Shown here: positions 28,043-56,009 of the stretch, in pieces
How positions within the stretch are numbered: position 1 is the stretch's first letter
Layout of the letters: every line of letters begins with the position of its first letter
Source: an uncultured Haloferula sp.
GTDB lineage: Bacteria > Verrucomicrobiota > Verrucomicrobiia > Verrucomicrobiales > Akkermansiaceae
Direction of reading: 5' to 3'
Assembly (NCBI GenBank): GCA_965652295.1
Contig: CBFGTS010000006.1
Location: 32,001 to 96,000, forward strand
Length of the DNA stretch: 64,000 bases
Made by a program: the position numbers and the translations under genes
Notes under the pieces: generated by a model
The model's database searches: none
Seen by the model: the letters and a program-made list of their open reading frames with translations, nothing else
Told to the model about the DNA's origin: nothing

Positions 28043-29104
28043 TCAATCGCCCGCCGGCGCGTCCTCCGCGGGTGCGGGCGGGGCTACCTCCGGCGCGACT
28101 TCGCCCGCGTCGCGGAAACGTCCGCCTTGGAATCGCAGCCGGATGCCGCCGTCACCGAAGCTTTCCAGCGAACTGCCGAAATCGAGGCTGTCGATCCGCT
28201 GCCGCACGTCTTCCGGCGCGGCCGCCTTGTCTTCCTCGGTCTCGTAGGGGCCTTCCCACACGACCTTGCCGTCCGGACCGAAAACCTTGGCCTGCTTGCC
28301 GGAGCCATCGTTGTTGAGCTCCACGCTGCCGTTTTCATCCATCAACCGGATCGAGGATCCCATGCCATCCGACCGGAACTGCATGCCTTCCGAGCCCATG
28401 CTCATCTGGCGGCGCAAACGCTCCATCATGTGGTTGGGAAACGCCTGATCGATGTCAGGCATCGTCTCATCGAACTGGTCGAGCAACTGGAGGTTGCGCT
28501 GCAAGGCGTCGCGCAGCAGGTCGGCGTGGCGGTCCGGCAGCGAATTCAAGCCGCGGTCGGCCATCCCAAAGCCGGGATCCCGCAAGGGTGCCACGTCCGG
28601 AGCCTGCGGCCGCGGGCCGAGCACCACCTTGAATTCCCGGCGCTCGCCACCTTGGATGGCCTCGATGACCACTTCGTCACCGACGGCGCGGCCGGCAGTG
28701 ATGTCGCTGATGTCCTGGCGCGCACCGATGGGCTTGCCATCGAGTTTGAGAATGATGTCGTTCTTTTCGAGACCCGCCGTCGCGGCAGGTCCTCCTTCGA
28801 GAATCTGGCCGATGATCACCCCTTGGCCGTTCTCCAGCTTCAGGTGCTCGGCGAGAAACTCGGGAACGTTCTCCAGCACCACACCGAGATACGGCTTGCC
28901 TGCTTGGAGAGCTTCCGGCTCGGCCACTTCCACCGCCCGCGGGGCGGCCTGAACGCGGCGCGGCGGGGCATTCTCGATCGTCGCCGGCGGCTGCTGCGGC
29001 GGGATCGGAGCGCGGTCGACCGGGGGCTCGATCGCCATGGCCGGGACCGTCGCCACGGATAGGGCGAGGATCGGGAAAAGCTTTGTCGTCATCTTCGGGT
29101 TCAT
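28043..29104 (-). CDS. Secreted PDZ-domain protein without protease domain (cassette 1)
   Basis: Signal peptide; YLGV...GVIIGQILEGGPAATAGLEKNDIILKLDG; no trypsin-type GxSGG; C-terminal VVWEGPY domain. Confidence 0.85.
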   Translation of the reverse strand: MNPKMTTKLFPILALSVATVPAMAIEPPVDRAPIPPQQPPATIENAPPRRVQAAPRAVEVAEPEALQAGKPYLGVVLENVPEFLAEHLKLENGQGVIIGQILEGGPAATAGLEKNDIILKLDGKPIGARQDISDITAGRAVGDEVVIEAIQGGERREFKVVLGPRPQAPDVAPLRDPGFGMADRGLNSLPDRHADLLRDALQRNLQLLDQFDETMPDIDQAFPNHMMERLRRQMSMGSEGMQFRSDGMGSSIRLMDENGSVELNNDGSGKQAKVFGPDGKVVWEGPYETEEDKAAAPEDVRQRIDSLDFGSSLESFGDGGIRLRFQGGRFRDAGEVAPEVAPPAPAEDAPAGD

Positions 29105-29159
29105 CGTGTTCACTACTATAAGCGCAGTACCTCAGGATTCTCGTCTGCGCATGATTCCG

Positions 29160-29795
29160 TCAGTCCACCTGCTCGGGCAGCACCACGTATTCGACCCGTG
29201 GCACGGTCGTCTCGATCACCTGCCCCTGCTCGTTGAGCAGCTTCATGCGATCCAGAAAAGTCACTTTCACCACCCGCATCGGCTTGGCCTGGCGGTTGTA
29301 GCGCACGCCGAGGTCCTCGGTGCGGCGCACGGCGCTATCGATCGAGGCCGGCTGGAAATGACCCGCTGCCGGGAGCGCTGGCGTGGCCACCGACATCTCG
29401 CTGCGCACCGCCAGCGGAGTCTTGGTGTCCTGGCTGGCTCCGGGGCTCATCTTCACCGCCGTCCATGCGCCTGCCAGCGCCACTGCCGCCGCCGCGGCAA
29501 GCCACGGAAAACGGCTCGTCCCCGAACGTTCCACGGCCGCTGCCACGGGAAAGGGCACGGTTTTCGCCTCCGGCTGAAACGGTACCCGCTCCAGTGTGGC
29601 GGCCAGTTTTTCAGAAAGTGCCGCACTCGGCCGGTTCGGGCGCATCTGCCTCAGCCGCTCCTCGGTTCCTTCCGCCACCGTCTCATCGCCCATCGCCACC
29701 GCGAGGCAATCCAGCAGCACCGGATCGAGACGCCGGGGAACCAGCGATTTCAGCTCGTCTTCGAGGCGTTGGAGTTCGGGTTCCATGGCTTTCAT
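29160..29795 (-). CDS. Putative single-pass anti-sigma factor (cassette 1)
   Basis: TGATG coupling to the sigma stop; TM WLAAAAAVALAGAW; C-terminal beta-rich tail ...VPRVEYVVLP. Confidence 0.75.
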   Translation of the reverse strand: MKAMEPELQRLEDELKSLVPRRLDPVLLDCLAVAMGDETVAEGTEERLRQMRPNRPSAALSEKLAATLERVPFQPEAKTVPFPVAAAVERSGTSRFPWLAAAAAVALAGAWTAVKMSPGASQDTKTPLAVRSEMSVATPALPAAGHFQPASIDSAVRRTEDLGVRYNRQAKPMRVVKVTFLDRMKLLNEQGQVIETTVPRVEYVVLPEQVD

Positions 29796-30391
29796 CAAAT
29801 CGAGAGGTCGCCCTTGCGTCGGGCACCGGAGAGCTTCTTCTTGAGGGCTTCAAGACCGTAGCGATACCGCGAGGCCGCAGTGTTTGGGGAAATATCGAGC
29901 GCTTCTCCGATTTCCGCGAAAGTCCGCTCGCCCCAGACTTTCATCACGATGACCTCGGCAAACTTCTTCGGCAGGTCCTTCAAGCCGCTCTCCAGCAGTT
30001 TCCGCGTCTCGTCGTCCGAGCCGTCGCCGTCGAACCAAGGATGGAACTCATCCTGCAGCTGCACGATCGAGTCCCCCACCACCTGATCCTCGCGGCGTCT
30101 GCGGCGGTCGTCCTTGCGGCCCAGATCGATCGCGAGCCGGCGCAGCGCCGTGTAAAGGTAGGGCATCCACGCCTCCTGGCCGCCGGAGAATTCGTTGGCT
30201 TCGATCTTATCGACCAGCTTCACCAGGGCATCCTGCAGGATGTCCTCGGCGTCTTGCTGGGAGCGCGTCTGCTGGCGGGCGAAAAGCAACAGCTTCGGGC
30301 CGTGCACGGAGAGCCACTCCCGCCAACTTGTCGGGGTGGTGTTGGAAATCATGGCAGGTTGAGGCGTCACCTGTAGTTCGGGAGGGTTCAT
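29795..30391 (-). CDS. ECF sigma-70 family factor (cassette 1)
   Basis: Region 2 DAEDILQDALVKL; region 4 TFAEIGEALDISPNTAASRYRYGL. Confidence 0.93.
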   Translation of the reverse strand: MNPPELQVTPQPAMISNTTPTSWREWLSVHGPKLLLFARQQTRSQQDAEDILQDALVKLVDKIEANEFSGGQEAWMPYLYTALRRLAIDLGRKDDRRRRREDQVVGDSIVQLQDEFHPWFDGDGSDDETRKLLESGLKDLPKKFAEVIVMKVWGERTFAEIGEALDISPNTAASRYRYGLEALKKKLSGARRKGDLSI

Positions 30392-30400
30392 GGCTCAAGC

Positions 30401-30423
30401 GACGCCTTTTTTGCGGATTGTCT
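30401..30423 (-). promoter_or_regulatory. Putative ECF promoter AGACAA-N11-GGCGTC
   Basis: Ends 9 nt before the sigma ATG; same motif and spacing upstream of the paralogous sigma (52342-52364). Confidence 0.5.
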
Positions 30424-30548
30424 AATTCTCCGGACCGCCGGGTATGAAACCGGCATCCATTCTTCCACACACTTCCGTTTCCGAAGCCACCACACAGCAA
30501 TCCCGCTTCCAGCCCTCTCGATAGGGCGATGCCGATTTCACCCTCGCC

Positions 30549-33377
30549 TCACCTCCCGGCCAACGCCCGGCCGGTCGGCGAATCGGGATTCGCCGCGAGT
30601 TCCGCGGGCGTGCCTACCGCCACCACCCGGCCGCCGCGCTTCCCGCCGCCGGGGCCCAGATCGATGACGTGATCGGCCGCGCGGACGACGTCGAGCTGGT
30701 GCTCCACCACCAGCACTGTGTGGCCCGCCTCGCGCAGGCCGCGGAAGGCTTTCAGCAGCCGTTCCACGTCACCGAAATGCAGGCCGGTCGTCGGTTCATC
30801 GAAAAAGTAAAACGTGTGCGGGGCTGCTGGTTTCGCCAGCTCCACCGAGAGCTTCAGCCGCTGCGCCTCGCCGCCGGAAAGCGTGTCCGCCGCCTGACCC
30901 AGCCGCAGGTAGCCGAGCCCCAGGTCCTCGATCACTCCCAGCAGCGGCGCGAGCTTCGGCACCACCGCGAACACTTGCCGTGCCTCGGAAACGGACAGCT
31001 CCAGCACATCGGCGATGCTCAGGCCCTTGAACGCCACCTCCAGCGTTTCGCGGTTGAAACGCCTCCCCCCGCAGGCCCCGCACGGCACCCAGGCATCGGG
31101 CAGGAAATGCATCTCGATCCTCAGCCGGCCCGCGCCCTCGCAGCGCTCGCAGCGGCCGCCACGCGTATTGAAGCTGAACCGGCCGGGACCATACCCGCGT
31201 TGGCGGGAAAGCGGCAGTTTCGCGAACATCGCGCGGATCAGGTCGAATGCTCCGGTGAATGTCGCCGGGTTCGAGCGCGGACTTCGGCCGATCGGCGACT
31301 GGTCCACGATCACCGCCTTTCCGATGTATTCGAAGCCATCGATGCCGTCGTGCTCGCCCGGCCGGTCCGTCGCGCCGTGGAAATGACGCCGCATCGCCCG
31401 CATCAGGATGTCGTCCGCCAGTGTCGATTTTCCACTACCGCTCGGCCCGCACAGGCAGGTGATCGTCCCCAGCGGGATCCTCACATCCACGTTCTTCAGG
31501 TTGTGCTCCCGCGCCCCCCGGATCACCAGGTCATTGCCCCAGTCCAGACTGCTCTTCACTCCCCGCTCCGCACTCCGCGTTCCGCACTCCAACCACGCCT
31601 TCGTCGGCGATCCCTCCACCTCCGCCATCGGTCCGTTCGCCAGCAAAAATCCGCCCTCCCTCCCCGCGCCCGGCCCCAGCTCCACCAGCCAGTCCGCCGC
31701 GCGGATCACCGCCTCGTCGTGTTCGACGACCACCACCGTGTTTCCCCGGTCGCGCAGCTCCTCCAGCGCCCCGATCAGCCGCCCGGTATCTTCCGCGTGG
31801 AGGCCGATGCTCGGTTCGTCCAAAACATACAGCACCCCCGTCAGCCCGCTGCCCAGCTGCGTCGCCAGCCGGATCCGCTGCGCCTCGCCGCCGGAAAGCG
31901 TGCCGCTCGCCCGGTCCAGTCCCAGATACCCCAGCCCCACGCGTTCCAAAAACGAGAGCCGCTCCTCCAGCTCGCTGACCAACCGTCCGCACACCTCCGC
32001 CCGATCCTGCGGCACCTGCACCCCCTGCAACCACACCAGCGCCTCTTCCACCGGCAAGCCGCAGAAATCCTGCACCCCGAGCCAACCGCCAGTCCCCTCG
32101 ATCCTCACCGCCAGCACTTCCGGCTTCAGCCGTTTTCCAGCGCACACCCGGCACGGCCGGTCCGCCATCACCCGCGCGACCCGTCGCCGCACCGCCTCAC
32201 TCGCCGCCGACCAGTACTTCCGCTCCGCCTCCACGCACAGGCCCTCGTATTTCTTCAACTGCGGTTTTTTCTCCGCGCCCATCTTCCACCCCGTCTCCAG
32301 TGTCCCGCCGGAGAAAAGCAACTCCTTCAGCTCCACCGGAAGCCCGGCGAACGCCACCCCTTCCACCCCGAACATCCGCTCCATCGCCTCCGCCTCCCGG
32401 GCGAACATCTTCTCCCGCTGCGACTTCGGCTTCCACCATCCTCGCACCGCCTCCGCCAACGGCTTTTCCGGATCGTCCACCAGCAGCGTCGGATCACAAA
32501 AACGCTCCGTGCCCAGCCCCTCGCACGCCGGACACGCCCCCAGATGCGAGTTGAACGAAAAATGCCGCGGGCTCAGCTCCCCGATCGTGAAGCCCGTCTT
32601 CGGATTCCGGTAGCTCGTCTGAAACGACCGCGCCTCCCACTCCGCCGACTCCGGTCGCTGGACGAGCACCCGCGACTCACTGCCGCAGATCCGCAGCGCC
32701 GTTTCCACCGAGTCCGCGATCCGCGACTCCGCTCCGCCGCGCACCACCAGCCGATCGACCACGATCTCCACCTCCCGCACCCGCTCCGGCCAGGCCGCCT
32801 CCACCTCATCCAGGTCCAGCATTTCCCCATCCACCCGGATCCGCACGAATCCCTGCCGCTTCAAATCCGCCACCAGCCGTGCCACCTCCGCCGCCTCCTC
32901 CCGCGGCACCGGAGCCAGCACCACCACCTTCGTCCCCTCCGGCTCCGCCGAAAGCGCCGCGACGATGTCCCCCGCACCCATCTTCTCCAGCCGCTCGCCC
33001 GTCGCCGGGTCATGCGGCGTCCCCGCCGCCGCCCACAGCACCCGCAGGTGCTCGTAGATCTCCGTCGCCGTCGCTACCGTCGATCGCGGATTCAGCCCGC
33101 CGCTCCGCTGCTCGATCGCGATTGCCGGGCTCAACCCCTCGATCGCATCCACGTCCGGCTTTTCCAGCTGATCGAGGAACTGCCGCGCATACGCCGAGAG
33201 CGACTCCACGAACCGCCGCTGCCCCTCCGCGAACAGCGTGTGAAACGCCAGCGACGATTTTCCGCTCCCGCTCGGCCCCGTCACCACCACCAGCTTCTCC
33301 CGCGGAATCTCCAGATCGAGGTTCCTCAAATTGTGCTGCCTCGCCCCACGAATCCGGATCACGGAAACGAGCTTCAA
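30549..33377 (-). CDS. uvrA: Excinuclease ABC subunit A
   Basis: [35 protein letters not shown], second [12 protein letters not shown], Zn-finger CxxC motifs; start is TTG 33377 or GTG 33362. Confidence 0.96.
31559..31590. repeat. Tandem 7-bp units (YTCCGCR) inside uvrA
   Basis: ctccccg ctccgca ctccgcg ttccgca ctcc; encodes [10 protein letters not shown]. Confidence 0.8.
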
Positions 33378-33446
33378 GTTTCACGCGGGCAGTTTCAAGT
33401 GATGAGGTGGCGGGCTTGAAACTTGAATCTTGAACCTCGAAGCTTG
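33373..33446. repeat. Inverted array of 7-bp units (CTTGAAN) in the uvrA/trpF divergent gap
   Basis: Left arm ttcaagtttca...agtttcaagt; right arm cttgaaa cttgaat cttgaac ctcgaag cttg. Confidence 0.8.
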
Positions 33447-33450
33447 CCCC

Positions 33451-34083
33451 GTGCTCGCCCGATTCCTCGATCCCTCATTCTGCTCGCTGAAGATCTGCGG
33501 CGTCACCCTCGCCTCCGATGCGGAACAGCTCGCCGAACTCGGCGTCGATGCCCTCGGTGCCAATTTCTGGCCGCAATCGAAACGCTACCTCGATCCCGGA
33601 CACGCGGCCTTCTTGAAGGACCTCGCCGGCCGCATCCTCCGCGTCGGCGTCTTCGTCAACTCCGGGCCCGACCAGCCCCGCCGGCTTTTCGAGGACGGCT
33701 ACATCGACGCCGTCCAACTCCACGGCGATGAACCGGAAACCGACCTCCGTGCCCTCGCAGGGTCCGGCGTTCCCCTCATCCGCTCCGCCACCCTCGCCAA
33801 CGCCCACGTCCCCGAGGTCCCCGCCGCACTACTGCTCGATGCCCACGCTCCCGGTATTTACGGCGGCACCGGCCAGACCATCGATTGGACTGCCGCCGCC
33901 GACTTCATCCGCCAGCACCCCCGCCTCTCCGTGATCCTCGCCGGCGGCATCGTCCCCGCCAACGCCGCCGAAGCCATCCGCCTCGTCCGCCCCTGCGCCA
34001 TCGACACCGCCTCCGGAGCCGAGTCCTCCCCCGGCATCAAGGATTTCGAAAAAGTCCGCGCTCTTCAAAAGGCACTTTCCTGA
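33451..34083 (+). CDS. trpF: Phosphoribosylanthranilate isomerase
   Basis: LKICGV, VGVFVN, VQLHGDE, LLDA, GGTGQTIDW, LAGG, DTASGAESSPGIKD; start uncertain (GTG 33451). Confidence 0.93.
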   Translation: MLARFLDPSFCSLKICGVTLASDAEQLAELGVDALGANFWPQSKRYLDPGHAAFLKDLAGRILRVGVFVNSGPDQPRRLFEDGYIDAVQLHGDEPETDLRALAGSGVPLIRSATLANAHVPEVPAALLLDAHAPGIYGGTGQTIDWTAAADFIRQHPRLSVILAGGIVPANAAEAIRLVRPCAIDTASGAESSPGIKDFEKVRALQKALS

Positions 34084-34171
34084 TTTGGAACGCGAGCTTC
34101 AGAGGCTGCTGAAACCGCAATCCGCTTGCATCTACAGCCAAGAGGCGTTTGATTTCCCGCGCCACTCCTTC

Positions 34172-34597
34172 ATGCGCGGTTCTCCCATTTTTCGCACGTT
34201 CTTCCTCGTCCTCGGGCTCGCCCTCGCGGCCTTCGGCGTGCGTGAACTCACCCGCCCGGCCGCACCCGCTCCCCTCCGGGAAACTCCGGAGAAGGCTGCA
34301 GCCCCGGATCGGATTGAGATCCCCTTCGAGCTGACCCTCTCCGCTCCGGCCCGGGAAATCCTCATCGAATCTTCCGGCGACGCCCAATCGCTCGCCCCCG
34401 ACCGCCAGGTCCTCACCGGCACCCTTTTCGCCGAGGACGACCATCCCGCCATTTTCGTGACGATCCGCTGGGCGGAAAACGATGGCAGCCCGCGTTTCGC
34501 CAAGCTCCGTCTCGAACCGCCCGGCTCCGCCACCCGAACCAAAATCTTCGACGCCACCGGCGATCTCGAAGACGTCTGGGAACCCCACCTCCACTGA
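34172..34597 (+). CDS. Hypothetical membrane-anchored protein
   Basis: N-terminal TM helix, beta-rich domain, ends WEPHLH; 2 nt before the ABC ATPase. Confidence 0.7.
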   Translation: MRGSPIFRTFFLVLGLALAAFGVRELTRPAAPAPLRETPEKAAAPDRIEIPFELTLSAPAREILIESSGDAQSLAPDRQVLTGTLFAEDDHPAIFVTIRWAENDGSPRFAKLRLEPPGSATRTKIFDATGDLEDVWEPHLH

Positions 34598-34599
34598 TC

Positions 34600-35367
34600 T
34601 TGGCTTCCGACCCCCACGAGTGCTGCAAGCATCACGACCACCACCACGAGCTGGTCGTCACGGATCTCTGCGTCCGCTACCGCCGCGTCACCGCGCTCAA
34701 GGACGTGAACCTCGCCACCTCCTGTGGCACCCGCGTCGCCCTCATCGGGGCCAATGGTGCCGGCAAGTCCACCCTCATCAAGGCCATCGCCGGCCTCGTC
34801 CCCCGTGCGTCCGGCAGCATCCGGTGGCGCGGCACCGCCGTCCGCCGTTGGTCGCGCGAGTTCGCCTACCTGCCCCAGCGCGAGGAGGTCGATTGGTCGT
34901 TCCCCATCACCGTCCGCGGCCTCGTCGAGATGGGCCGCTACCCCCAGACCGGCATGTGGGGCCGTTTCACGGAAAAGGACGACGACGCCGTCGAGCAGGC
35001 CCTCGCCACGCTCGACCTGCTCGACCTCGCCGACCGCCAGATCCGGGAACTCTCCGGCGGTCAGCAGCAGCGCGCCTTCCTCGCCCGCTCGATCGCCCAG
35101 GAAGCCCACGTCCTCCTGCTCGACGAACCCTTCACCGGCCTCGACCGTCGCGCCTCGCTCCAGCTCGGAGAGACCCTCCGCGACCTCGCCCGCGAAGGTC
35201 GGCTCATCATCGCTTCCCACCACGACCTCAACACCGCCCGGCAGCTCTTCGACCAAGCCCTGCTTCTCGCCACCCGCCCCATCGCCTTCGGCCCCGCCGC
35301 GGAGGTCCTGACGGAGGAAAACCTCGCCCTCACCTTCGACGGGCCCTCTTCCCTGCCAGTGGCATGA
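34600..35367 (+). CDS. Zn/Mn ABC transporter ATP-binding protein (ZnuC-like)
   Basis: GANGAGKST, YLPQREEVDWSFPITV, LSGGQQQR, LLLDEP; His/Cys-rich N-terminus. Confidence 0.92.
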   Translation: MASDPHECCKHHDHHHELVVTDLCVRYRRVTALKDVNLATSCGTRVALIGANGAGKSTLIKAIAGLVPRASGSIRWRGTAVRRWSREFAYLPQREEVDWSFPITVRGLVEMGRYPQTGMWGRFTEKDDDAVEQALATLDLLDLADRQIRELSGGQQQRAFLARSIAQEAHVLLLDEPFTGLDRRASLQLGETLRDLAREGRLIIASHHDLNTARQLFDQALLLATRPIAFGPAAEVLTEENLALTFDGPSSLPVA

Positions 35368-35389
35368 CCAGAAGCCGCTCCATCTCCAC

Positions 35390-36226
35390 GTGAGCATTGA
35401 ACTACTAGACTCCCCGTTTTTCCAGCGCGCCCTCGCCGCCGCGCTCGTCATCGGCTTCGCGAATGGCTTCTTCAGCGGCTTCGTCGTGCTGCGCAAACAC
35501 GCCCTCTCCGTCAGCGCCCTTTCCCACACGATGCTTCCCGGGATCACGCTCGGTATCGTCGTCGCCGGCGCGCTCACCCAGGCCAGCGCCTTTCTCGGCG
35601 CGCTTTTCGCCGCCCTCATCGTCGGTCTCGGCTCCGTCGCCGTCGCCCGCGGAAACCGGATTTCCCAAGGAACCGCGCTCGCCGTCATCTACACCAGCGC
35701 CTTCGCCGCCGGCGTCGCCATCCTTCCCCGGCTCGATACCCGCCACGAGCTGGAGCACTGGCTTTTCGGCGATATCCTCGCCGTCGGCACCGGCGACCTG
35801 TGGATCGCCCTCGGCATCGGCGGCACCATGCTTCTCACCGCCAACCTCCTGATGCGGCCGCTGCTGCTCACCCTCTTCGAACCGAACGTCGCCGCCGCCC
35901 AGGGCGTCCCGGTACGAACCATGCAGTACTTGGTCTTCGGCCTGCTCGTCCTCTCGCTCGTCGCCTCGCTCCAAGCCGTCGGCTGCGTGCTCTCCGTCGG
36001 CCTGCTCGTCGCTCCCGCCGCCACCGTTTCGCTGCTGACCGATCGCACCTCGCTGCTCTTCTGGGGCGGCGGCCTGCTGGGAGCTTCGGGGGCCGTCGGC
36101 GGCGTCCTCCTCGCCGCCTCCACCAACCTCGCGCCCGGTCCCGTCATCGTCATGGTGCTCGGAGCCTGTTTCCTCCTCGCCTGGCTTTTCAGCCCCAAAT
36201 ACGGGGCCGCGTTGCGCAAGCGCTGA
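35390..36226 (+). CDS. Zn/Mn ABC transporter permease (ZnuB-like)
   Basis: ALSHTMLPG, LFGDIL, LQAVG..L...LLVAPAAT; multiple TM helices. Confidence 0.92.
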   Translation: MSIELLDSPFFQRALAAALVIGFANGFFSGFVVLRKHALSVSALSHTMLPGITLGIVVAGALTQASAFLGALFAALIVGLGSVAVARGNRISQGTALAVIYTSAFAAGVAILPRLDTRHELEHWLFGDILAVGTGDLWIALGIGGTMLLTANLLMRPLLLTLFEPNVAAAQGVPVRTMQYLVFGLLVLSLVASLQAVGCVLSVGLLVAPAATVSLLTDRTSLLFWGGGLLGASGAVGGVLLAASTNLAPGPVIVMVLGACFLLAWLFSPKYGAALRKR

Positions 36227-36303
36227 CCGCGGAACTGCGCATCAGCGGGCAGGTTTTCGGGCTTTCCATGGTCCGCACCTTCGGCGAAGTTCCCCGGCCG
36301 TTC

Positions 36304-36582
36304 ATGAAGCCCGCCCTCTTTTTCCTGCCGCTCGTCCTCGTTGCCTGTGCATCGAAGGAGGCCGTTGTGGAAGAGCCCGCTCCGGCCCCCACCCCGTCGG
36401 AGGAAATTACTCCAGCGGTCGTCGACGAAGCGCCGCAGGAGCCTCTTCCCGCTCCGGGCGAGGACTTGGGCCTGCTGGAGCCCGAGGAGCTGACCGCCAT
36501 GCCCGAAGACCGCGACATGCGCCCGACGGTCAATCCCGGCGAGGCAAACCCGATCATCGCCACGCCACCGGCCGGGCGGTGA
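36304..36582 (+). CDS. Small Pro/Glu-rich lipoprotein
   Basis: MKPALFFLPLVLVAC lipobox. Confidence 0.65.
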   Translation: MKPALFFLPLVLVACASKEAVVEEPAPAPTPSEEITPAVVDEAPQEPLPAPGEDLGLLEPEELTAMPEDRDMRPTVNPGEANPIIATPPAGR

Positions 36583-36939
36583 TCCGGCGGACCTGATCGA
36601 CCCACTCCGCGAAAACGTAATCGCCGGAATATCAAATTAGGTTAAATATTCACCTGCTTTCACGAATCAGCCCCCGAACCGATTCACGAAAGCGTCCGCA
36701 GGTCCGCCCGCGTTCTGCCAAACCTGTTCCCACAGGCCGCATTCCTCGTTTTGTTCCCACAGATCATTCGGCACCCCGCTTCCGGAAAACCTCTCCTCGA
36801 GGCCCAGGAGCGGGGTTCGATGTTTCAGCGTCTCACGTTTCCCGGAAACGCCTCGCCGATCACCGCAGCTCCCCCTCGATCAGGAGCCGCCGGGCGTGGC
36901 GGAAGCAAGATCAGGAATCGATCCGCGTATGCGTGAGGG

Positions 36940-39366
36940 ATGTCGAGTAGGTCCATCATCGTCACCCATGTCTCCCTGATCGCCGGTGCCCTGACCGCAG
37001 CGGGCGAGGAGAAGGTGTCCTATGACGACCACATTTTCCCTCTTTTCGAACAGTCGTGCCTGAACTGCCACAACCCGGACAAGACCAAGGGCGGACTCGA
37101 TCTTTCCTCCTACAGCGGTGCGATGAAGGGCGGCTCGGGCGGAAAGATCGCCGAGGCGGGCGACCTGGACTCGAAACTCCTCGTCGTGGTCAGGCAGACC
37201 TCCGAACCGAAAATGCCGCCGGAAGGTGACAAGCTCGGCGACGACAAGATCGCCCTGCTGAAATCGTGGATCGAGGGCGGCCTGCTGGAAAACCAGTCGT
37301 CCACGGCGAAGAAGCCCTCGAAACCGAAGTTCGACCTCGCCATGTCCGCCGATCCGACGGCCAAACCGGACGGCCCACCGCCGATGCCGCAGCATGTCCT
37401 GCTGGAGCCGGAAGTCGTCGCCGATCGCGCCGCCGCCGTGCAAGCGATGGCGACCTCGCCATGGGCACCGCTGCTCGCCGTCACGGGACAAAGGCAGGTG
37501 CTGCTGTTTGATACTGGAGGCCTCGTACTAGCCGGCGTGCTGCCGTTTCCGGAAGGCGATCCAACCTCGCTCGCCTTCACTTCCAACGGTCGCTATCTCA
37601 TCGTCGGCGGTGGCATCCCGGGAAAATCCGGCCTCACGGCGACCTTCGACGTCACCACCGGGGAGCGCCTGATGACCATCGCCAAGGAGTTCGATACCAT
37701 CCTCGCCTGCGATCTGCGGCCGGAACTCGACGCTGTGGCCACCGGATCGCCTTCGCGCCGTATCAAATTCTGGAAAACCGACGACGGCTCGCAAGTCACC
37801 TCCATCAAGAAGCACACCGACTGGGTGACCGCGCTCGACTTCTCTCCGGATGGCGTGCTGCTGGCTACCGGCGACCGCAATGGCGGCGTGTGGGCCTGGG
37901 AGGCCGCGACCGGCAACGAATTCCACACCCTGCGCGCGCACCAGGCCGGGATCACCGCGGTGGCCTTCCGTGCGGACTCGAACGTGCTCGCCTCCGCCTC
38001 GGAGGACGGCACGGTGCGTTTTTGGGAAATGAACAACGGCGGGGAAATCCGGAAGATCGACGCCCACCCCGGCGGTGCGCTCGGTTTCTCCTGGGCGCGC
38101 GATGGCTCCTTCGCCACCTGCGGGCGGGATGGAAAAGCGAAGCTGTGGAAGCCGGATTTCAATCATCGCCGCGACATCGGCGAACTGCCCGATCTACCGG
38201 TGACCATCGCACTGGCTGCCGATGGCAAACGCGCCTTCATCGCCTGCTACAACGGCCAGGTGCTGGTGCACGACGTGGAGAGCGGGAACAGGATCGGCGG
38301 TTTCGACTCGAATCCTCCAGCGATCGAAACCCGCCTGATCGCCCTGCGCGAGGACCTCGACCAGCAGCCCCAGCGGATTGCCGAAGCCACCCGGGCGCGG
38401 GACGAAGCCCGGCGGTTGGCGGATGAAGCGCGCTTGTCGCTGGCAGCCCTGGAACAGAGGAGAACCAAATCCGATGCAAAAGCCGCGGAAGCCGACCGGC
38501 TGCATCAGGAGAAACGGGCGGAACTCGATACCCGTCAGGCCGAACTCGAACCGCTGGCCAAGGAACACGACGCCCTCTCGCAAGCCGTCGCCGAGGCCGG
38601 CCGCCAGTCGGACGAAAAGCGGGCTGCGCTTGCTTCCCTAATGACTTCTCTTGAGGACGCACGCATACGCGTGACCGCCACAGAGCAGGACACTCCGGAG
38701 TTCGATGTTTCCCAGCAGGAGCTTTCCGACCTTGAGCGGCAACATCGCGAAACGTCCGAACAGCTCGCCTCCTTGGAAGCCCGGCGTCAGGCTTCGCAAC
38801 AGCAGCTCGGCGAGCTGAACCCGCGAATCACCGGCCTGGAGGCACAGCTTGACACGACGAAGCAGTCGGTGGACGAGAGTCATCGGGCGCTGGAAGCCTC
38901 CAAGACGGAAGCGGAGGACACTCGGAAGGAGCTGGAGGCAAAAAGCAACGAATTCGAGCAGCGGCGAAAATCACTGGAGGAGCAGGAAGCCAGGCTCACC
39001 TCGGAAACGAAACGCCTCGAAGCGCTGCGCCGCGACCAAGCTCGCTGGGCGTCGGCCGCGATCAGCACGCAAGCCCTCCGGACCCGGGCCGAAGCAGCCA
39101 CTGCCATGACCGCCGCGGAAGATCTCGCCCGACAATTCGATGCCGCCCAATCCGGGTTCCAAGCCTTGGTGACGTCGCTTCAAGCCGCGCGCGCCGCGGG
39201 CGAGGCGGAGGTTCACAGACGGGAAGAGGGGCTCCGGCAGGCGGAGTCCGATCTGATGAAACTGGGCAAACGCGTCGGCGAGGCGCTTTCCGAGGCCGAT
39301 CGTCTCCAGCGGGAGGCCGACCGTTTGCAATCCGAATACCGAGCCTCGCTGGGACGACCGGAATAG
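36940..39366 (+). CDS. Planctomycete-type cytochrome c + WD40 repeats + long coiled coil
   Basis: CLNCHN, KMPP, WIEGG; WD40 repeats (HTDWVTALDFSPDG, LASASEDGTVRFW); ~350 aa heptad-rich C-terminus. Confidence 0.85.
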   Translation: MSSRSIIVTHVSLIAGALTAAGEEKVSYDDHIFPLFEQSCLNCHNPDKTKGGLDLSSYSGAMKGGSGGKIAEAGDLDSKLLVVVRQTSEPKMPPEGDKLGDDKIALLKSWIEGGLLENQSSTAKKPSKPKFDLAMSADPTAKPDGPPPMPQHVLLEPEVVADRAAAVQAMATSPWAPLLAVTGQRQVLLFDTGGLVLAGVLPFPEGDPTSLAFTSNGRYLIVGGGIPGKSGLTATFDVTTGERLMTIAKEFDTILACDLRPELDAVATGSPSRRIKFWKTDDGSQVTSIKKHTDWVTALDFSPDGVLLATGDRNGGVWAWEAATGNEFHTLRAHQAGITAVAFRADSNVLASASEDGTVRFWEMNNGGEIRKIDAHPGGALGFSWARDGSFATCGRDGKAKLWKPDFNHRRDIGELPDLPVTIALAADGKRAFIACYNGQVLVHDVESGNRIGGFDSNPPAIETRLIALREDLDQQPQRIAEATRARDEARRLADEARLSLAALEQRRTKSDAKAAEADRLHQEKRAELDTRQAELEPLAKEHDALSQAVAEAGRQSDEKRAALASLMTSLEDARIRVTATEQDTPEFDVSQQELSDLERQHRETSEQLASLEARRQASQQQLGELNPRITGLEAQLDTTKQSVDESHRALEASKTEAEDTRKELEAKSNEFEQRRKSLEEQEARLTSETKRLEALRRDQARWASAAISTQALRTRAEAATAMTAAEDLARQFDAAQSGFQALVTSLQAARAAGEAEVHRREEGLRQAESDLMKLGKRVGEALSEADRLQREADRLQSEYRASLGRPE

Positions 39367-39374
39367 CCGCCGCT

Positions 39375-40046
39375 TCAAGCGCCTTGGGGCGACGGAGTAA
39401 CCGGCTCGTCGATGGCCCGGTAAGTGACCTTTCCGGTTTCCGGATTCACAAAGAAAAAGATATACGAGCGGATGCCCTTGTCGATCGGCCAGCGGGTTTT
39501 GCTGATCGTGCGGTCCCCGGTTTCCTCGCGGACCCCGAAGCCGACGTTGTAGTATTTCCCGTTCACCGGACCCTTGGGTCTCAGGAACGTGCCCTTTCCC
39601 GGAAGGAGGGCGAAGCGGGCGTCACCCACATATCCCATCACGCCTTTGTTCGAGTGGTTGTGGAAATACACATCTCCGATTTTGAATTTCTCGTTCACCG
39701 CGGGGATCACCACGGATTCGTAACCGCCTTCTTTGGACGGGAGGAGGAGAACGATGAACTGATCTCCCTCTTCGGGGAGTTCCACTTTCGCCAGCTCAGT
39801 GGCGGCGTCCGCCGGCTTCAGTCCGAAGCTTCGCGCGGGAGCCTTGATCGGTTCGCTCACATGATTGACCGGAAGCACGAAAGGATCGCTCGTCTTTTCA
39901 CCCGCCACCAACACCACCGCTCCCAGGTCCTTCGGAGTGCGTTCGGCCAACAGCCTTACCTGGAGCCCTTTCCCGCCCGCTGTCTGAGCACTCAGGGGCG
40001 TGGTCAACAATGCGGAAAACAACAAGGCGAAGAGGAATCGGAACAT
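39375..40046 (-). CDS. Secreted hypothetical protein downstream of the PilX-like gene
   Basis: Signal peptide MFRFLFALLFSALLTTPLSA; 17 nt after the upstream stop. Confidence 0.75.
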   Translation of the reverse strand: MFRFLFALLFSALLTTPLSAQTAGGKGLQVRLLAERTPKDLGAVVLVAGEKTSDPFVLPVNHVSEPIKAPARSFGLKPADAATELAKVELPEEGDQFIVLLLPSKEGGYESVVIPAVNEKFKIGDVYFHNHSNKGVMGYVGDARFALLPGKGTFLRPKGPVNGKYYNVGFGVREETGDRTISKTRWPIDKGIRSYIFFFVNPETGKVTYRAIDEPVTPSPQGA

Positions 40047-40063
40047 GATTTGGGAATCTAGGC

Positions 40064-43000: not shown

Positions 43001-43582
43001 TCCCTCCGCTCCGTCCAATCTCACCGTGGGCACTTCGACCCGCGCCTCCCGCCGGTCTCCGATCGTTCCTTCCCCCACCAATTCGATGCCCTCCTCCGCT
43101 GCCCCATCAGGAGACTCCTCATCCTCGACTGCCAGCGTTTCCCCGGAAACCAGCCACGAACGGAAGTCCGGGTCAGGGCGCTGCGCGAACTCGTCTCCCC
43201 AGGAATCGTAGACCCCCGTCCAGTGACGTCGACCTTCCACCGCCGAAGGAGAATCCCCGTCGGCCGAGTCGGAGCGCTGGTCGGAGGAAACCGTGATCCG
43301 TCGATCGGGGCCGACATGCTTTTGAAGTTGCCCGATCGCCATCATCAATGCCATTCGCGCATTTGATCTGGCCTCGGCCAAATCCCCGTTCGCACTCGAG
43401 TTCCGCAGGGAAATGGTGGACAGAGACAGCAGCCCCACACCGAGAAGGGTGAGGAGAACGGTCAACGAAATCACGATGATCAAGGCAAATCCTCGGGCCG
43501 CGTATGGACGCGCCGTCCTTGGGTCAGCAGGCTTCGCCCCGGGCGCACCGATGGCGGGTGATTCGGGTTTTTTCGCTATCAT
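40064..43582 (-). CDS. Large PilX/GspK-like (Verru_Chthon cassette protein A-like) protein
   Basis: RG|FALIIVISLTVLLTLLGVGLL without Glu5; ARSNARMALMMAIGQLQK; WWVGDQG; RGPFLSLADFVNR; RSDTFVIRAYG; GRRF...FRWLHPDEV. Confidence 0.8.
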   Translation of the reverse strand: MIAKKPESPAIGAPGAKPADPRTARPYAARGFALIIVISLTVLLTLLGVGLLSLSTISLRNSSANGDLAEARSNARMALMMAIGQLQKHVGPDRRITVSSDQRSDSADGDSPSAVEGRRHWTGVYDSWGDEFAQRPDPDFRSWLVSGETLAVEDEESPDGAAEEGIELVGEGTIGDRREARVEVPTVRLDGAEGPRIAWWVGDQGLKASVTAPETERPEVKSLARNQLQGTPRDAVELAEAIGEQPFSDLAPYDPRLAKVTGWKQAGLLASSPAEAGPLFHDLAGHSTGLLVDVRRGGFRKDLSMELERSVGASSKEALYEVNREDGVNFEELTAFYQLHSDLSEGPGPQYTTGGRIGADTPYLQLPVNAAQAQRDDFYYFKQPVVLSYQLILSFEARRVTASNGQTVNRLHLVGDPVITLWNPLDVPVVLPRNNIFSVKYWQVPYDLYLEVGAGAPRRCPLISTLSGGKITANSDNNYLSLVIGRSEQLVMKPGEVVRFSQNRPTIVNANNQTNHNLLAGAGFHYEGGVSLPLRDLNGNPIDLAGNSVVRYTARANDLTAGATSRSGRSLAGGPAHTRHFSMTHHEFYMGEDRGANSLGVGGIYIDYDFGNKRAARRQTRGEGTPGTKNPRERLYANRLPDVFPPLTAGQARPLSLSQLLSDKAPFMVFSFEAKTEVDAQMGTRILSRFNPKAHHVDFYDMSEQERAILPYEYRVQPIISWKEGKIEVDEQGRSYYGGGLTAETGTNTIITHSVPREPIVSLGALQHSFANGFITQRPPYGYAALSAREPLLPQIAHAIGNSMAPPMMDSSETEGSLPGGRPMADHSYLANLALWDEWFFSGIAPQTGPGFAGSRSQREVAEEFFSGDANLPVVRYRPNLGNEDATSVVGDLISGTQPNDDATFLVASLLKVDGMFNVNSTSVEAWKSLLGGLREQPVVVQDMDGKERVTAGEEVPVSGLLTPQDELCDGSNNLDLTEPSQWVGRRELSEDEIESLAYAIVREVRKRGPFLSLADFVNRRPGSDEDFARCGAIQSALDSDEVGINSGFNRGSRSVDRSAASVFAFSEAEEGPKAFGAPGLVKQADILTPIAPLLSVRSDTFVIRAYGESLAKNGKVVARAWCEATVERQKDYLDPTDEPETELDDLRGEASKDFGRRFTMTSFRWLHPDEV

Positions 43583-43874
43583 GGGTTTTACGCGAGGTTA
43601 CCGGGAACTCGCGCCGATCCCCCGCGGGCTACGGGAGACGAACGCGAACGATCCGACCACTAGTCGTATCATGGCACTTAAGGGAACATCCGGTGCCCTT
43701 CACAACCATCCTCGTGCGTATAGTTTATTCTGATTTGCGCAGTTCCTTGTCGCAGCAGGGAAAAAGCCGACATACGAAGTAAAGACATCTCCAGGAGCCA
43801 AGCGACCCACTCGAAGAGGCCGATCTTCTCCGACACCTTGACTTCCCCCACCTCCCCGTCACTATTCCCCGAAA

Positions 43875-46085
<2,211 letters not shown>

Positions 46086-46098
46086 CAATGATCATTTG

Positions 46099-46358
46099 AT
46101 GGTTTTCGACCGCCTTTTGCTCTCCCATGGACGGCGACGGCATTCTCGGGCAAAGGCGTCCGGAAATGCGGCGGTCGCTGGAATTCGCCCGGAACCCATA
46201 GAAAACGGGTGGCTGGACCGTGGGCAGTCGCTCGTTCTCCGCGTCCCCTCGGGCTCGCTCCCGAGGAGCCGAATTACGTTCTGAACCCCCAGCATCCGGA
46301 TTTTTCCAAGCTCGTTCTTGGCGAGGGCAAGGTGTTCCATTTCGATTCCCGGCTCTGA
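46099..46358 (+). pseudogene. RES-domain toxin remnant (frameshifted, internally deleted)
   Basis: Motifs in successive frames: WTATAFSGKGVRKCGGRWNSPG; WLDRGQSLVLRVPS; LAPEEPNYVLNPQHPDF...FHFDSRL*. Confidence 0.8.
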
Positions 46359-46361
46359 ACC

Positions 46362-46820
46362 ATGTCAGCCAAAGCCCATCTCATCCGGCACGTGCGCGAG
46401 GCGCTGGCCGAGCGCTTCGCGAAAATGGAAGCCGCCGCCCGCGACGCCCACGCCGCAGCCAGCGATCCGGACTCCAAGGCGGAATCGAAGTACGACACCC
46501 GTAGTTTGGAGGCCTCCTATCTTGCCGCCGGCCAGGCCCAGCAAGTGAGCGAGATGGCGGGAGCGGTCGCGCGCTTCAGTAATTTCGAAGCCCGGGATTT
46601 CGATCTGACCGATGCCATCGAAACCGGTGCCCTCGTCGAGGTGACCGGTGAGGAGGATTCCGCCTGGTATCTGCTCGCTCCGGCGGCCGGGGGACTGACC
46701 GTGGACTACGATGGCCTCGAAATCACCGTCCTGACACCGGCGAGTCGGCTCTATCAGGCCTTGCTCGGCAAGACCCTCGGCGACGAGGTGGACGAAGGAT
46801 TCGTCACCGAGCTGCGGTGA
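46362..46820 (+). CDS. GreA/GreB-fold protein with atypical tip
   Basis: N-terminal coiled coil with KAESKYDTRSLEASYLAAGQ; C-terminal GALVEV...ITVLTPASRLYQALLGK..GDEV. Confidence 0.8.
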   Translation: MSAKAHLIRHVREALAERFAKMEAAARDAHAAASDPDSKAESKYDTRSLEASYLAAGQAQQVSEMAGAVARFSNFEARDFDLTDAIETGALVEVTGEEDSAWYLLAPAAGGLTVDYDGLEITVLTPASRLYQALLGKTLGDEVDEGFVTELR

Positions 46821-46823
46821 ACC

Positions 46824-47147
46824 TCAGGGGTTCACCTTCTTCACGAAGCAGGCCTTCAGGGCGATGGCCATGTTGTCCATGCGGCAGGAAATCTCGTGGT
46901 CGCCCTCGACGAGGCGGATCGGCTTGGATTTGGTGCCGCTTTTCAAAACCTCAGAGGAGCCCTTGAGTTTCAGGTCCTTGATCATTGCGACGATGTCTCC
47001 ATCGGCCAGCACGTTGCCATAGGCGTCTTTCACCACCCGCGCCTCTTCGGGCTTCTCCCACTCGTGGCCGCAGGTCAGGCATTCGAACTTGTTCTCGTGC
47101 GCGATGACTTCATCCATCGTGCAAAGCGGGCATGCGGGGTGACTCAT
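46824..47147 (-). CDS. PhnA/YjdM zinc-ribbon protein
   Basis: CPLC...CLTCGHEW; VKDAYGNVLADGD; IKDLKLKGSS; LKACFVKK; ATG 47147. Confidence 0.9.
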   Translation of the reverse strand: MSHPACPLCTMDEVIAHENKFECLTCGHEWEKPEEARVVKDAYGNVLADGDIVAMIKDLKLKGSSEVLKSGTKSKPIRLVEGDHEISCRMDNMAIALKACFVKKVNP

Positions 47148-47197
47148 GGGCAGGAAGAAGAGGGAAAGATCCCACCCATGGCAAGAGCCCGCATCCG

Positions 47198-47230
47198 CTG
47201 TCAGTGGCATGATCGTCCCGATCATGAACG
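47198..47230 (+). repeat. Single REP unit of the 22065-22179 family
   Basis: ctgtcaGTGG-CATGATCG-TCC-CGATCATG-aacg. Confidence 0.85.
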
Positions 47231-47335
47231 AACGGGCATGAACCATGCCTTGAGCAGTTCGACTCTTCGACAAGAACCGACACTCCGGACCCCGCCGGCC
47301 GCGGGACCACCGATAGGCGATCCACAACCGCCACG

Positions 47336-47363
47336 AAAAAGGCGGGGCATGCGCCCCGCCTTT
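47336..47363 (-). terminator. Intrinsic terminator of eno
   Basis: Minus strand ggcggggc-gcat-gccccgcc-ttttt, ~25 nt after the eno stop. Confidence 0.85.
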
Positions 47364-47387
47364 GAAAAGCAGTGTTGCGGCCGCGGC

Positions 47388-50538
<3,151 letters not shown>

Positions 50539-50612
50539 CGCGGGAGAACGTGAGAAGACCGCCCGCAAAACGCAAGGCCCTTCCCATCGAAAGCTCCCGG
50601 GGCGTGTCAGCG

Positions 50613-51359
50613 CTACTCGCGGGCAGCGGGCACGACCACCCGCGGACGCGGTCGGCGGCTCCAGTGACGGTCTTCGGTGCGGTTGAGCCCGCGGATCAGA
50701 GCCTCCACCGAGGAGCGCCAGGCGGGTGGTACGGCCGCACCCTCGCCACGAACAGGGCCTTCGTAAATAACGTGGGCGTCGGCATCCCGGATCACCACCA
50801 CGAATCCTTCCTCTTCCTTCGTCAGCCGCGCGGTGCTTCCATCCTCGCGCGAAACCTCTGCCACGCTCGACTGCGGATAAACGACCGTCTTCGGCATCCC
50901 GGGCACACCCGGAGGGACCAGCGTGACATCCATCGGGGAAACAGGAGCTTCGAGCTGCATTTCCGGCATTTCCTCCAACGTCAGCTCCAGCGTCACCTTC
51001 TCGCCGGAACGCATCACCGCGAGCTTCACCGTGTCGCTTTTCCCATACATCCGCAGCAAGGTCGCGAACTGCGCCTCGTTCACCAGCAGCTGGTCATCGA
51101 GCATCCACACGATGTCATACGGCTTCACGCCGGCTTCCGCCGCGGGACCGCCCGGGAAAACCTTCTCGACCAAAAATCCGATGCCCTCCGGCAGCCCGGG
51201 CGCGTGCGCACGCATCTCCGGAGCCAGCGGGCTCACGGAAAAACCGACCCACACGTGACGAGCCGGCTGCGCCGGCGCGGCCTCCTTCTCCTCGGCGGAG
51301 ACAGGAGCCACGGCGATCAGCGCGACGATAGGAAGAAGAAGGTGGAAAAGCGTCTTCAT
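50613..51359 (-). CDS. Secreted PDZ-domain protein without protease domain (cassette 2)
   Basis: Signal peptide MKTLFHLLLPIVALIAVAPVSA; WVGF...GFLVEKVFPGGPAAEAGVKPYDIV; C-terminal VIYEGPV domain; ATG 51359. Confidence 0.85.
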   Translation of the reverse strand: MKTLFHLLLPIVALIAVAPVSAEEKEAAPAQPARHVWVGFSVSPLAPEMRAHAPGLPEGIGFLVEKVFPGGPAAEAGVKPYDIVWMLDDQLLVNEAQFATLLRMYGKSDTVKLAVMRSGEKVTLELTLEEMPEMQLEAPVSPMDVTLVPPGVPGMPKTVVYPQSSVAEVSREDGSTARLTKEEEGFVVVIRDADAHVIYEGPVRGEGAAVPPAWRSSVEALIRGLNRTEDRHWSRRPRPRVVVPAARE

Positions 51360-51361
51360 CG

Positions 51362-51811
51362 TCAAAACGTGTTCACCGGCAACATCACCCACTCCTCGCG
51401 CGGGTGCAGCACCCTCACGGTCTGCCCCGTGGCTTCGTCGTGAAAGCGTTCCTCGTTCACCACCTTCACGTGCCACCCTTGGAGGAGCGAGCCGTTCTCG
51501 TCCAACCACTCACCATCCCGCTCGGCGGAAACCACGCCTTCGCTGGAGGAAACCAGCTGCATGGCAGGAACCACCGCCCGATCCGCCACCTCCGGCGCAT
51601 CCGGCTCCGGCAAGGTATGCCAGGCCAATGCCGCCGCACCCGTGACCGCGGCGGCCATTCCCGAAATCCTCCACCACGGCCACCTTCTCGTCTCCTCCAC
51701 CCCGGCCAGGGAGTCGATCATGGCGTCCATTTCCCGAGCACCGCGGTCGGTGAAACCGCGGGGAACCAGCGATTCGCGGAGCATTTGCTCGATACGATCC
51801 ACCTCATCCAT
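51362..51811 (-). CDS. Putative single-pass anti-sigma factor (cassette 2)
   Basis: 8-nt overlap with the sigma gene; SLVPR; TM MAAAVTGAAALAW; ...HPREEWVMLP. Confidence 0.75.
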   Translation of the reverse strand: MDEVDRIEQMLRESLVPRGFTDRGAREMDAMIDSLAGVEETRRWPWWRISGMAAAVTGAAALAWHTLPEPDAPEVADRAVVPAMQLVSSSEGVVSAERDGEWLDENGSLLQGWHVKVVNEERFHDEATGQTVRVLHPREEWVMLPVNTF

Positions 51812-52328
51812 GGCCGGCCTCCTTCGTGCGTTGCATTTTTTGCGCGAGCTGCTCCAGCGCGTAGCGGTAGCGCGAGGCGGCCGTGTTCGGCGAAATCGCC
51901 AGAGCTTCCGAGATTTCCGCAAAGGTCAGGCCGCCCCAGATCTTCATTGTCACCACCTCGCGCAGCTTGTCGCTGAGCTTCGCCACCTCGTCGCGCAGGT
52001 GCTTCGCGTCCTCGTCGTCCTCCAGCGCGGGGTCGAGCCAGACGTCGTCAAAATCGTTGAGGTAGACCACCGACTCCTCGCGCTTGCGGCGACGCGTTTC
52101 CGAACGATGCCGGTTCAGCCCCGCAAAGCGGATCGTGGAAAACGCCAGTGGCAGGTCCGGCGGACGTCCGCCCTTTTCCTCCTGCACGGTCCACAACCGC
52201 ATCACCGCCTCCTGCACCAGGTCCTCCGCGTCCGCCTGGCAAGGAGCCCAAGACCGCGCGAAGGCGAGCAGCCGGTGACCGTTGTCGGCCATCCACTGCT
52301 TCCATTCGCGGGCGCGCTGCTTCCTCAT
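51804..52328 (-). CDS. ECF sigma-70 family factor (cassette 2)
   Basis: DAEDLVQEAVMRLW; TFAEISEALAISPNTAASRYRYAL; ATG 52328. Confidence 0.93.
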   Translation of the reverse strand: MRKQRAREWKQWMADNGHRLLAFARSWAPCQADAEDLVQEAVMRLWTVQEEKGGRPPDLPLAFSTIRFAGLNRHRSETRRRKREESVVYLNDFDDVWLDPALEDDEDAKHLRDEVAKLSDKLREVVTMKIWGGLTFAEISEALAISPNTAASRYRYALEQLAQKMQRTKEAGHG

Positions 52329-52341
52329 TCGTAGGGAAAAT

Positions 52342-52364
52342 GCCGCCCGGACGTCCGTTTGTCT
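52342..52364 (-). promoter_or_regulatory. Putative ECF promoter AGACAA-N11-GGCGGC
   Basis: Ends 13 nt before the sigma ATG; mirrors 30401-30423. Confidence 0.5.
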
Positions 52365-55728: not shown

Positions 55729-56009
55729 GGGTTTTTGGGTTGATTTTGGGTTGTAAATATCTCGCCCGGCTTCTCGCAAAAAGAAGGAGCCAGGCCAGAT
55801 AGATTTCAGCATCCGAGCTTGAATGACGCTTCCTCGTCAAGCCGGAACTTCCCGCCCCAAAAAAAGCAGAATCAGCTCCACCCCGGACCCGGCCTCCTCG
55901 ACCTCTCCACCATTTCATACAGGAAAGGTTTCCTTTGCGGCAACGGTTCCGTCATCATCCAGATGTCAACTCCGCCCGCTACAGTATCGTGGGTCGCTTG
56001 CTTGTTCGA

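Follow-up and report, generated by a model that had tools for sequence, protein, structure and literature searches.

The stretch of DNA analyzed here (the window: 64,000 nucleotides of an uncultured Haloferula sp., positions 32,001 to 96,000 of contig CBFGTS010000006.1 in NCBI GenBank assembly GCA_965652295.1) carries two three-gene cassettes, A and B, that are copies of a conserved and apparently unstudied candidate stress switch of the Verrucomicrobia. In both, the gene for a sigma factor of the extracytoplasmic function (ECF) type is followed by that for a putative one-helix anti-sigma factor and by that for a secreted PDZ protein, here termed the partner. The best explanation for this arrangement, to which we assign a probability of about 0.5, is a docked-inhibitor model in which the PDZ domain of the partner acts as a plug on the anti-sigma factor and a beta sheet formed jointly by the two proteins serves as sensor or shield. 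An initial annotation, made from the sequence alone, had picked out both cassettes with this same gene order, and the translations of the open reading frames (ORFs) of the window place six intact ORFs there, all on the minus strand. The sigma and anti-sigma genes overlap as described, through TGATG in cassette A and over 8 nt in cassette B, and every motif that had been quoted for the three protein pairs is present in the translations. The features of the two cassettes are the following.

30398..30422, minus strand: putative promoter of cassette A, GACAA-N14-GTCGCT, ending 6 nt 5' of the ATG; motif in 14/15 A loci, 0.04 in shuffles.
29795..30391, minus strand: ECF sigma factor A, 198 aa, regions 2 and 4 only.
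29160..29798, minus strand: putative anti-sigma factor A, starting probably at ATG 29795 or 29786; duplicated N-terminal helical repeat, Ala-rich transmembrane (TM) helix at aa ~97-115, periplasmic beta domain at about 29357-29163, tail PEQVD.
29121..29145, minus strand: internal A-type promoter motif before the PDZ gene, GACGA-N14-TGCGCT.
28043..29113, minus strand: secreted PDZ protein A, without protease domain; signal-like N-terminus, HtrA-type PDZ at about 28900-28616, long linker, C-terminal beta domain (CTD) at about 28363-28175.
52339..52363, minus strand: putative promoter of cassette B, GACAA-N14-GGCATT, ending 10 nt 5' of the ATG; motif in 53/58 B loci, 0.0 in shuffles.
51804..52328, minus strand: ECF sigma factor B, 174 aa.
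51362..51811, minus strand: putative anti-sigma factor B; N-terminus short and helical, a weak TM helix rich in Ala at aa ~49-67, periplasmic beta domain at about 51559-51365, tail PVNTF.
50613..51359, minus strand: secreted PDZ protein B; signal-like N-terminus, PDZ at about 51260-50967, CTD at about 50879-50688.

The first genes code for group 4 (ECF) sigma factors, with regions 2 and 4 only and a length of about 170-200 aa: both regions lie above the Pfam cut-off in both proteins, region 3 is absent and TIGR02937 is above its cut-off as well. Sigma A and sigma B are 41% identical in pairwise alignment (E 6e-41), and no NCBIfam sigma subfamily among those shown reached its cut-off for either of them (best 25 of 77 shown). 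The products of the middle genes have no meaningful Pfam family and align only weakly with each other (E 0.002), yet a single profile recovers both at E<=6e-22. RskA, RseA or any other anti-sigma Pfam family is absent from 37 anti-sigma members at E<=0.1, NCBIfam yields weak matches only (E 0.001-0.005), and a search of solved structures with the anti-sigma alignment gave a best E of 0.17. The TM helix of the B protein is marginal, with a Kyte-Doolittle maximum of 1.25 versus 1.61 for A. To judge by sequence, the middle gene very probably encodes an anti-sigma factor.

The partners align significantly with each other over the PDZ domain only (27% identity, E 3e-8). This domain, present once, is the only Pfam family found in the products of the third genes, in which no trypsin match appears at E<=1, and a word similar to the GxSGG serine motif occurs in only one of 145 partner ORFs (GDSGS, locus L049). 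In 124 triads, at most 135 residues separate the anti-sigma stop from the PDZ domain. The partners, already described in the initial annotation as devoid of a trypsin-type GxSGG motif, carry no cryptic protease domain, and the name 'S1C family serine protease' that some databases give them is wrong. What they have in common with the HtrA/S1C proteases is the type of PDZ domain, but not the trypsin-like domain with GxSGG. The PDZ domain is HtrA-type both by sequence and by fold, its model is closest to the PDZ domains of AlgW and DegS (rmsd 1.7), and the Gly of its hydrophobic-Gly-hydrophobic binding loop is kept in 61/61 B and 16/16 A proteins. Partner B, modeled with a pLDDT of 87, consists of the PDZ domain, a linker and a CTD of five strands plus a helix, and the nearest named relatives of this protein are Haloferula proteins that are at most 66% identical to it. 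Elsewhere in the genome, five PDZ proteases with GxSGG and one RseP-like protein are encoded. At two loci (L261, G000:C6:181444-183648, and L272, G000:C2:83517-85521), an HtrA-like protein that has trypsin and PDZ matches without GxSGG, and is possibly a pseudoprotease partner, comes after an intact HtrA (GNSGG).

The C-terminal beta domain of the anti-sigma factors has no Pfam family, and its profile matches 1584 clusters at 50% identity; in 146 of the best 150 of these, a Pro stands exactly four residues before the last. Type B tails (P-V-S/T-x-F) have a final F in 59/64 cases and S/T at position -2 in 55/64 (the window's own tail, PVNTF, has N at -2), type A tails follow the pattern PE[KR][IV]D, and among 55 more distant tails the commonest last residues are Y (20), Q (16), H (6) and N (5). 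Tail length is fixed and tail chemistry varies, which fits a free C-terminus being read. HtrA-type PDZ domains prefer a hydrophobic C-terminal residue, and the class I PDZ ligand is a C-terminus of the form S/T-x-hydrophobic, a motif that fits most type B tails and not those of type A. Type B tails look like PDZ ligands, the role proposed for the tails in the initial annotation; those of type A, most of which end in D, are not canonical ligands. We consider it likely that the partner touches the anti-sigma factor and, for type B, somewhat probable that this contact is made by the tail lying in the PDZ domain.

Natural gene fusions provide an experiment that tells which parts of the system are dispensable. 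The protein encoded at locus L087 fuses an anti-sigma factor to a CTD without a PDZ domain, and 130 proteins were retrieved with it. Among the 120 matches listed, at least 49 clusters, which share 44-59% identity with the first member, join the anti-sigma N-terminus, TM helix and beta domain to the CTD with at most a PDZ remnant in between, three lack the anti-sigma beta domain and join the N-terminus to the CTD, and 68 are PDZ plus CTD proteins of the ordinary kind. The junctions vary from a retained PDZ remnant through to a direct join. Five genome loci present the fusion directly after the sigma gene, and the sigma tree of these loci forces at least two fusion origins, the resolution of the CTD tree being too poor to count them. 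A separate B-type PDZ gene was not found in fusion genomes G539 and G466, while the query in G023 found nothing, its own fusion included. One genome (G535, loci L226 and L231) carries the type B cassette in both forms, fused and unfused, which could stem from duplication or from bin contamination.

Because the fusions drop the PDZ domain and keep the CTD, the PDZ domain is more likely a tether than a sensor, and its redundancy upon fusion is most simply accounted for if it tethers the CTD to the anti-sigma factor. The initial annotation had instead favored the PDZ domain as sensor, and in such a scheme misfolded proteins of the outer membrane or periplasm would, through their exposed C-termini, displace the anti-sigma tail and release the partner. 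The HtrA/DegS type of the domain stands, its fold being closest to the peptide-sensing domains of AlgW and DegS; the final F of type B tails has a likeness to the termini of outer-membrane proteins; the predicted HtrA target described below would suit a peptide sensor; and sensing is compatible with tethering in unfused systems. An essential sensing role, however, is weakened by a fusion family that retains the CTD and persists, in at least 49 clusters, without any PDZ domain, two of the fusion genomes having no second B-type PDZ gene that could be found, and we regard this alternative as unlikely.

The docked-inhibitor model further draws on the AlphaFold model of the fusion (pTM 0.55), in which the three long strands of the anti-sigma factor and the CTD both reach a pLDDT of about 90 and the short N-terminal helices of the anti-sigma part a pLDDT of 50-78. 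At least ten short structural matches (rmsd 1.8-2.9) extend from residues 94-99 to residues 210-216, across both domains, which therefore adjoin in this model, implying that the anti-sigma beta domain and the CTD form one continuous sheet in the predicted fold. The best polo-box match, over residues 122-288 (Z 8.1, rmsd 3.1, 87 residues, 7% identity) has a Z within the range of common arrangements and a Foldseek E>=0.25; Foldseek returned nothing for the fusion model at E<=0.001, and the Atlas search yielded unnamed Verrucomicrobiota clusters only. These ranges also bear on the possibility that the PDZ protein is a co-regulated effector only, such as a periplasmic holdase, that makes no contact with the anti-sigma factor, the fusions being tolerated deletions. 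The partner gene has its own promoter motif in A cassettes, the last five anti-sigma residues could be conserved for folding and some fusions are eroded, all of which would agree with an independent effector. The repeated in-frame fusions, on the other hand, always retain the CTD and drop the PDZ domain, tail length is fixed in the 146 of the best 150 clusters mentioned above, and the model ranges imply contact between the domains; we deem such an effector very unlikely.

The sigma factor is present in 37 of 41 relatives, and type B in 143 of 251 genomes of the family; across the phylum it is found in 44 of 301 genomes, 42 of which belong to the class of the window. Loci could be named in Akkermansiaceae, Luteolibacter, Lacunisphaera, Chthoniobacterales, Udaeobacter and one Lentisphaerae bin. 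We examined 174 hand-picked loci, 56 low-scoring loci of other ECFs having been excluded beforehand; 165 of them are distinct, and six were dropped for a short flank or a low score, leaving 159 Verrucomicrobiota loci. The neighborhood survey bears out the conservation of the triad: a PDZ gene lies behind the sigma gene in 145 and the full triad is present in 128, counts that are not independent because the loci are hand-picked and related. The rest comprise loci with a PDZ partner without detected CTD (13), with PDZ plus CTD and an unresolved anti-sigma gene (4), with fusions (5), with the anti-sigma gene only (6) and with the sigma gene only (3).

Several variants deserve mention in their own right. 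A third type of cassette (L042, L043, L049 and L186-L189) codes for a PDZ protein with no recognizable CTD, often ending in a helical segment, and six of its anti-sigma tails end in Y. The Lentisphaerae locus (L080 / L181) has no PDZ gene; its anti-sigma tail is longer by about 29 residues, and the next secreted protein has no PDZ domain and a weak CTD-like stretch (E 0.018). Loci L151-L159, from genus g15 with genomes of 2-3 Mb, keep the sigma gene, mostly the promoter motif and often PDZ plus CTD, and L157 harbors a tandem array of sigma/anti-sigma pairs. Orphan sigma copies, with neither an anti-sigma nor a PDZ gene detected downstream, occur at L031, L033 and L077.

Bipartite motifs are conserved upstream of the sigma genes, with the pattern GACAA-N14-NNCGCT in 14/15 type A loci and GACAA-N14-GGCATT in 53/58 type B loci. 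The two patterns show zero cross-matches and shuffle means below 0.1, and a looser bipartite pattern is seen in 21/33 of the loci belonging to neither type. Since about half of ECFs autoregulate, as stated in the accessible part of the source (PMC7776599), these motifs are likely to be the autoregulated promoters of the sigma factors themselves. The start codons follow the -10 motif after only 6 nt (A) and 10 nt (B), a short distance suggesting that, in much of the genus, the sigma mRNAs are leaderless. The -35 element is common to both motifs and the -10 element differs (CGCT vs CATT), as does region 2.4 of the sigma factors (DLGR in A, mostly NxHR in B), and we infer that sigma B is an insulated paralogue with an altered -10 element. 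A convincing sigma B regulon was not found in the genome scan for motif sites; moxR, with a B-like site visible in two loci only, was dropped as a target.

The genome scan first brought up an HtrA gene or operon preceded by an A-like site. With the -35 element relaxed to [AG]AC[AG]A after the site had been seen, and with a variable spacer, the A motif precedes htrA in 30/30 loci of the genus, the host genome included (0.08 in shuffles). Three or four small-genome members of the family present a variant of the htrA motif that is one base longer, and two genomes lacking the sigma factor do not have it. It is quite likely, on the strength of these motifs, that sigma A reads the A motif and drives htrA, and the envelope role that had been proposed for the cassettes is backed by the motif common to cassette A and the HtrA operon. 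A second A-type motif lies before the PDZ gene in 12/15 other A loci as well as in the window, and in 0/60 B loci.

This internal motif helps to weigh a positive role for the partner, in which it would be an adaptor, or split DegS, that hands the anti-sigma factor to a separate HtrA or tail-specific protease and is needed for activation. An HtrA-type PDZ domain without protease, along with five intact PDZ proteases in trans, is what such an adaptor would call for; the HtrA gene is found in 6/8 small-genome members with the sigma factor versus 2/7 without it; and the same idea has been put forward for ECF273 in the accessible text of PMC7826278. However, an extra sigma-type promoter before the gene of an adaptor would give positive feedback, and a fused adaptor should result in constitutive degradation, yet the fusions are kept. 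We find the adaptor quite unlikely, and the balance tips slightly towards an inhibitory partner, as the docked-inhibitor model has it.

Two groups of the 2021 ECF classification (Casas-Pastor et al. 2021, PMC7826278; accessible part) present a comparable layout. In ECF273, the sigma factor is accompanied by a one-TM anti-sigma factor at +1 and a PDZ protein at +2, an order that its authors suggested to couple unfolded-protein sensing to anti-sigma degradation. The PDZ protein at +2 is also found in the window cassettes, but ECF273 (Xanthomonadales) is described there as 100% Proteobacteria, with an RskA-like anti-sigma factor and the predicted promoter AGTATAGG/CC, whereas the window family belongs to the Verrucomicrobiota, shows no RskA match in 37 anti-sigma factors and has the promoter GACAA/CGCT or CATT. 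ECF277s1 likewise combines a one-TM anti-sigma factor at +1 with a PDZ protein at +2; according to the same source its anti-sigma factor is a zinc-finger protein with HEAT repeats and the group is mostly acidobacterial, whereas the window anti-sigma factors contain 0-1 Cys each and an all-beta periplasmic domain. The window family is set apart from both groups by these described features, the gene order alone having a bioinformatic precedent, and none of the ten mentions of Verrucomicrobia in the accessible part of the supplement was seen with a PDZ neighbor. The triad had been thought uncharacterized, and this stands insofar as no study of this family was found in the literature searched, but its gene order had been described bioinformatically. 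Nor was a characterized envelope-stress sigma system for Verrucomicrobia found in the literature searched.

The closest functional parallels are RpoE-RseA-RseB with DegS and RseP (ECF02) and AlgU-MucA-MucB-AlgW, which, in the accessible part of PMC8103513, likewise gather a sigma factor, a one-TM anti-sigma factor and a periplasmic partner in one operon, and which also feature an HtrA-type PDZ domain, an HtrA protease as likely target and RseP in trans. Unlike ECF02, the +2 gene of the window is not RseB, its PDZ domain is not attached to a protease and no RseA or RseB Pfam match is obtained. The degP gene is a target of RpoE. CpxP, from the Cpx two-component system, is a periplasmic inhibitor whose own pathway induces it and which is lost upon folding stress; it is a helical protein with a histidine kinase as its target, and no homology to the window partner is implied. 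The system would work like sigma-E, yet it is not a member of any of the groups compared.

According to the docked-inhibitor model, the PDZ domain of the partner would plug onto the anti-sigma tail, and the CTD would complete the sensor sheet of the anti-sigma factor and shield it in an RseB- or CpxP-like manner. Misfolded periplasmic proteins would disturb or titrate the partner, leading to loss of the shield, and cleavage of the unshielded anti-sigma factor, first by an HtrA-type protease encoded separately and later by RseP, would set the sigma factor free. Sigma A would transcribe its own operon and the HtrA protease operon, and would also fire the internal promoter, the extra PDZ partner providing negative feedback. 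The proposed cleavage steps, like the sign of regulation, are borrowed by analogy from CpxP and from RpoE, the latter as covered in the accessible part of PMC8103513.

A number of observations weigh against this model. Besides the lack of independence of the locus counts, about seven loci have a PDZ partner without a recognizable CTD, which is thus not universal, and several small-genome family members keep PDZ plus CTD beside a degenerate anti-sigma tail. The final residue is D in 13/15 type A tails, and Q, H or N in 27/55 of the more distant ones. Four fusions lack most of the anti-sigma beta domain too, the joint sheet is read indirectly, from alignment ranges on the fusion model and not on the window's proteins, with no homology shown, and mean-field covariation over 126 paired rows gave a top inter-chain score of 0.91 versus 0.83 and 0.79 in two shuffles. 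Regarding targets, a strict match to the htrA motif is found in only 5/23 loci outside the genus, among them one inside the gene itself and one in a genome without the sigma factor, and three candidates were dropped: a LolA-like gene (motif in 2/28 loci), the gene of the secreted protein C1:496116 (1/30) and tolQ-exbD (4/30).

The genomic setting differs between the two cassettes, the only copies found in a search of the host genome. A uvrA-like gene precedes cassette A in 14/15 loci, and a GreA-domain gene follows cassette B in 26/39 loci with enough room. In the window, the gene directly downstream of cassette B (48703-50568, minus strand) codes for a 621-aa protein with GreA domains at its C-terminus only, and that upstream of it (52456-55812, minus strand) for a 1118-aa protein with LamG and PA14 domain matches. 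The 20 kb separating the cassettes hold unrelated content, and their closeness was rejected as meaningful since the spacing is not kept in relatives, where the A and B copies are either on different contigs or separated by about 170 kb to several Mb.

Taken as a whole, the cassettes define a candidate envelope-stress system of the Verrucomicrobia that has a defined promoter, an HtrA protease as its predicted target and two domain families without a name, one of them comprising 1584 clusters. With a common -35 and a different -10 element, the A and B paralogues also make up an insulated pair for specificity tests. If true, the docked-inhibitor model would show bacterial PDZ domains in a new role, that of tethers by which a sensor is assembled on the anti-sigma factor. 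A bolder and still tentative proposal is that of a phylum-wide two-piece sensor, a counterpart of sigma-E controlling HtrA, to which the anti-sigma factor would contribute three strands and the secreted protein five, the protease-derived PDZ domain being only a plug, dispensable on fusion. Should it prove true, it would bring two new domain families and a PDZ domain that serves in assembly, not in sensing or proteolysis.

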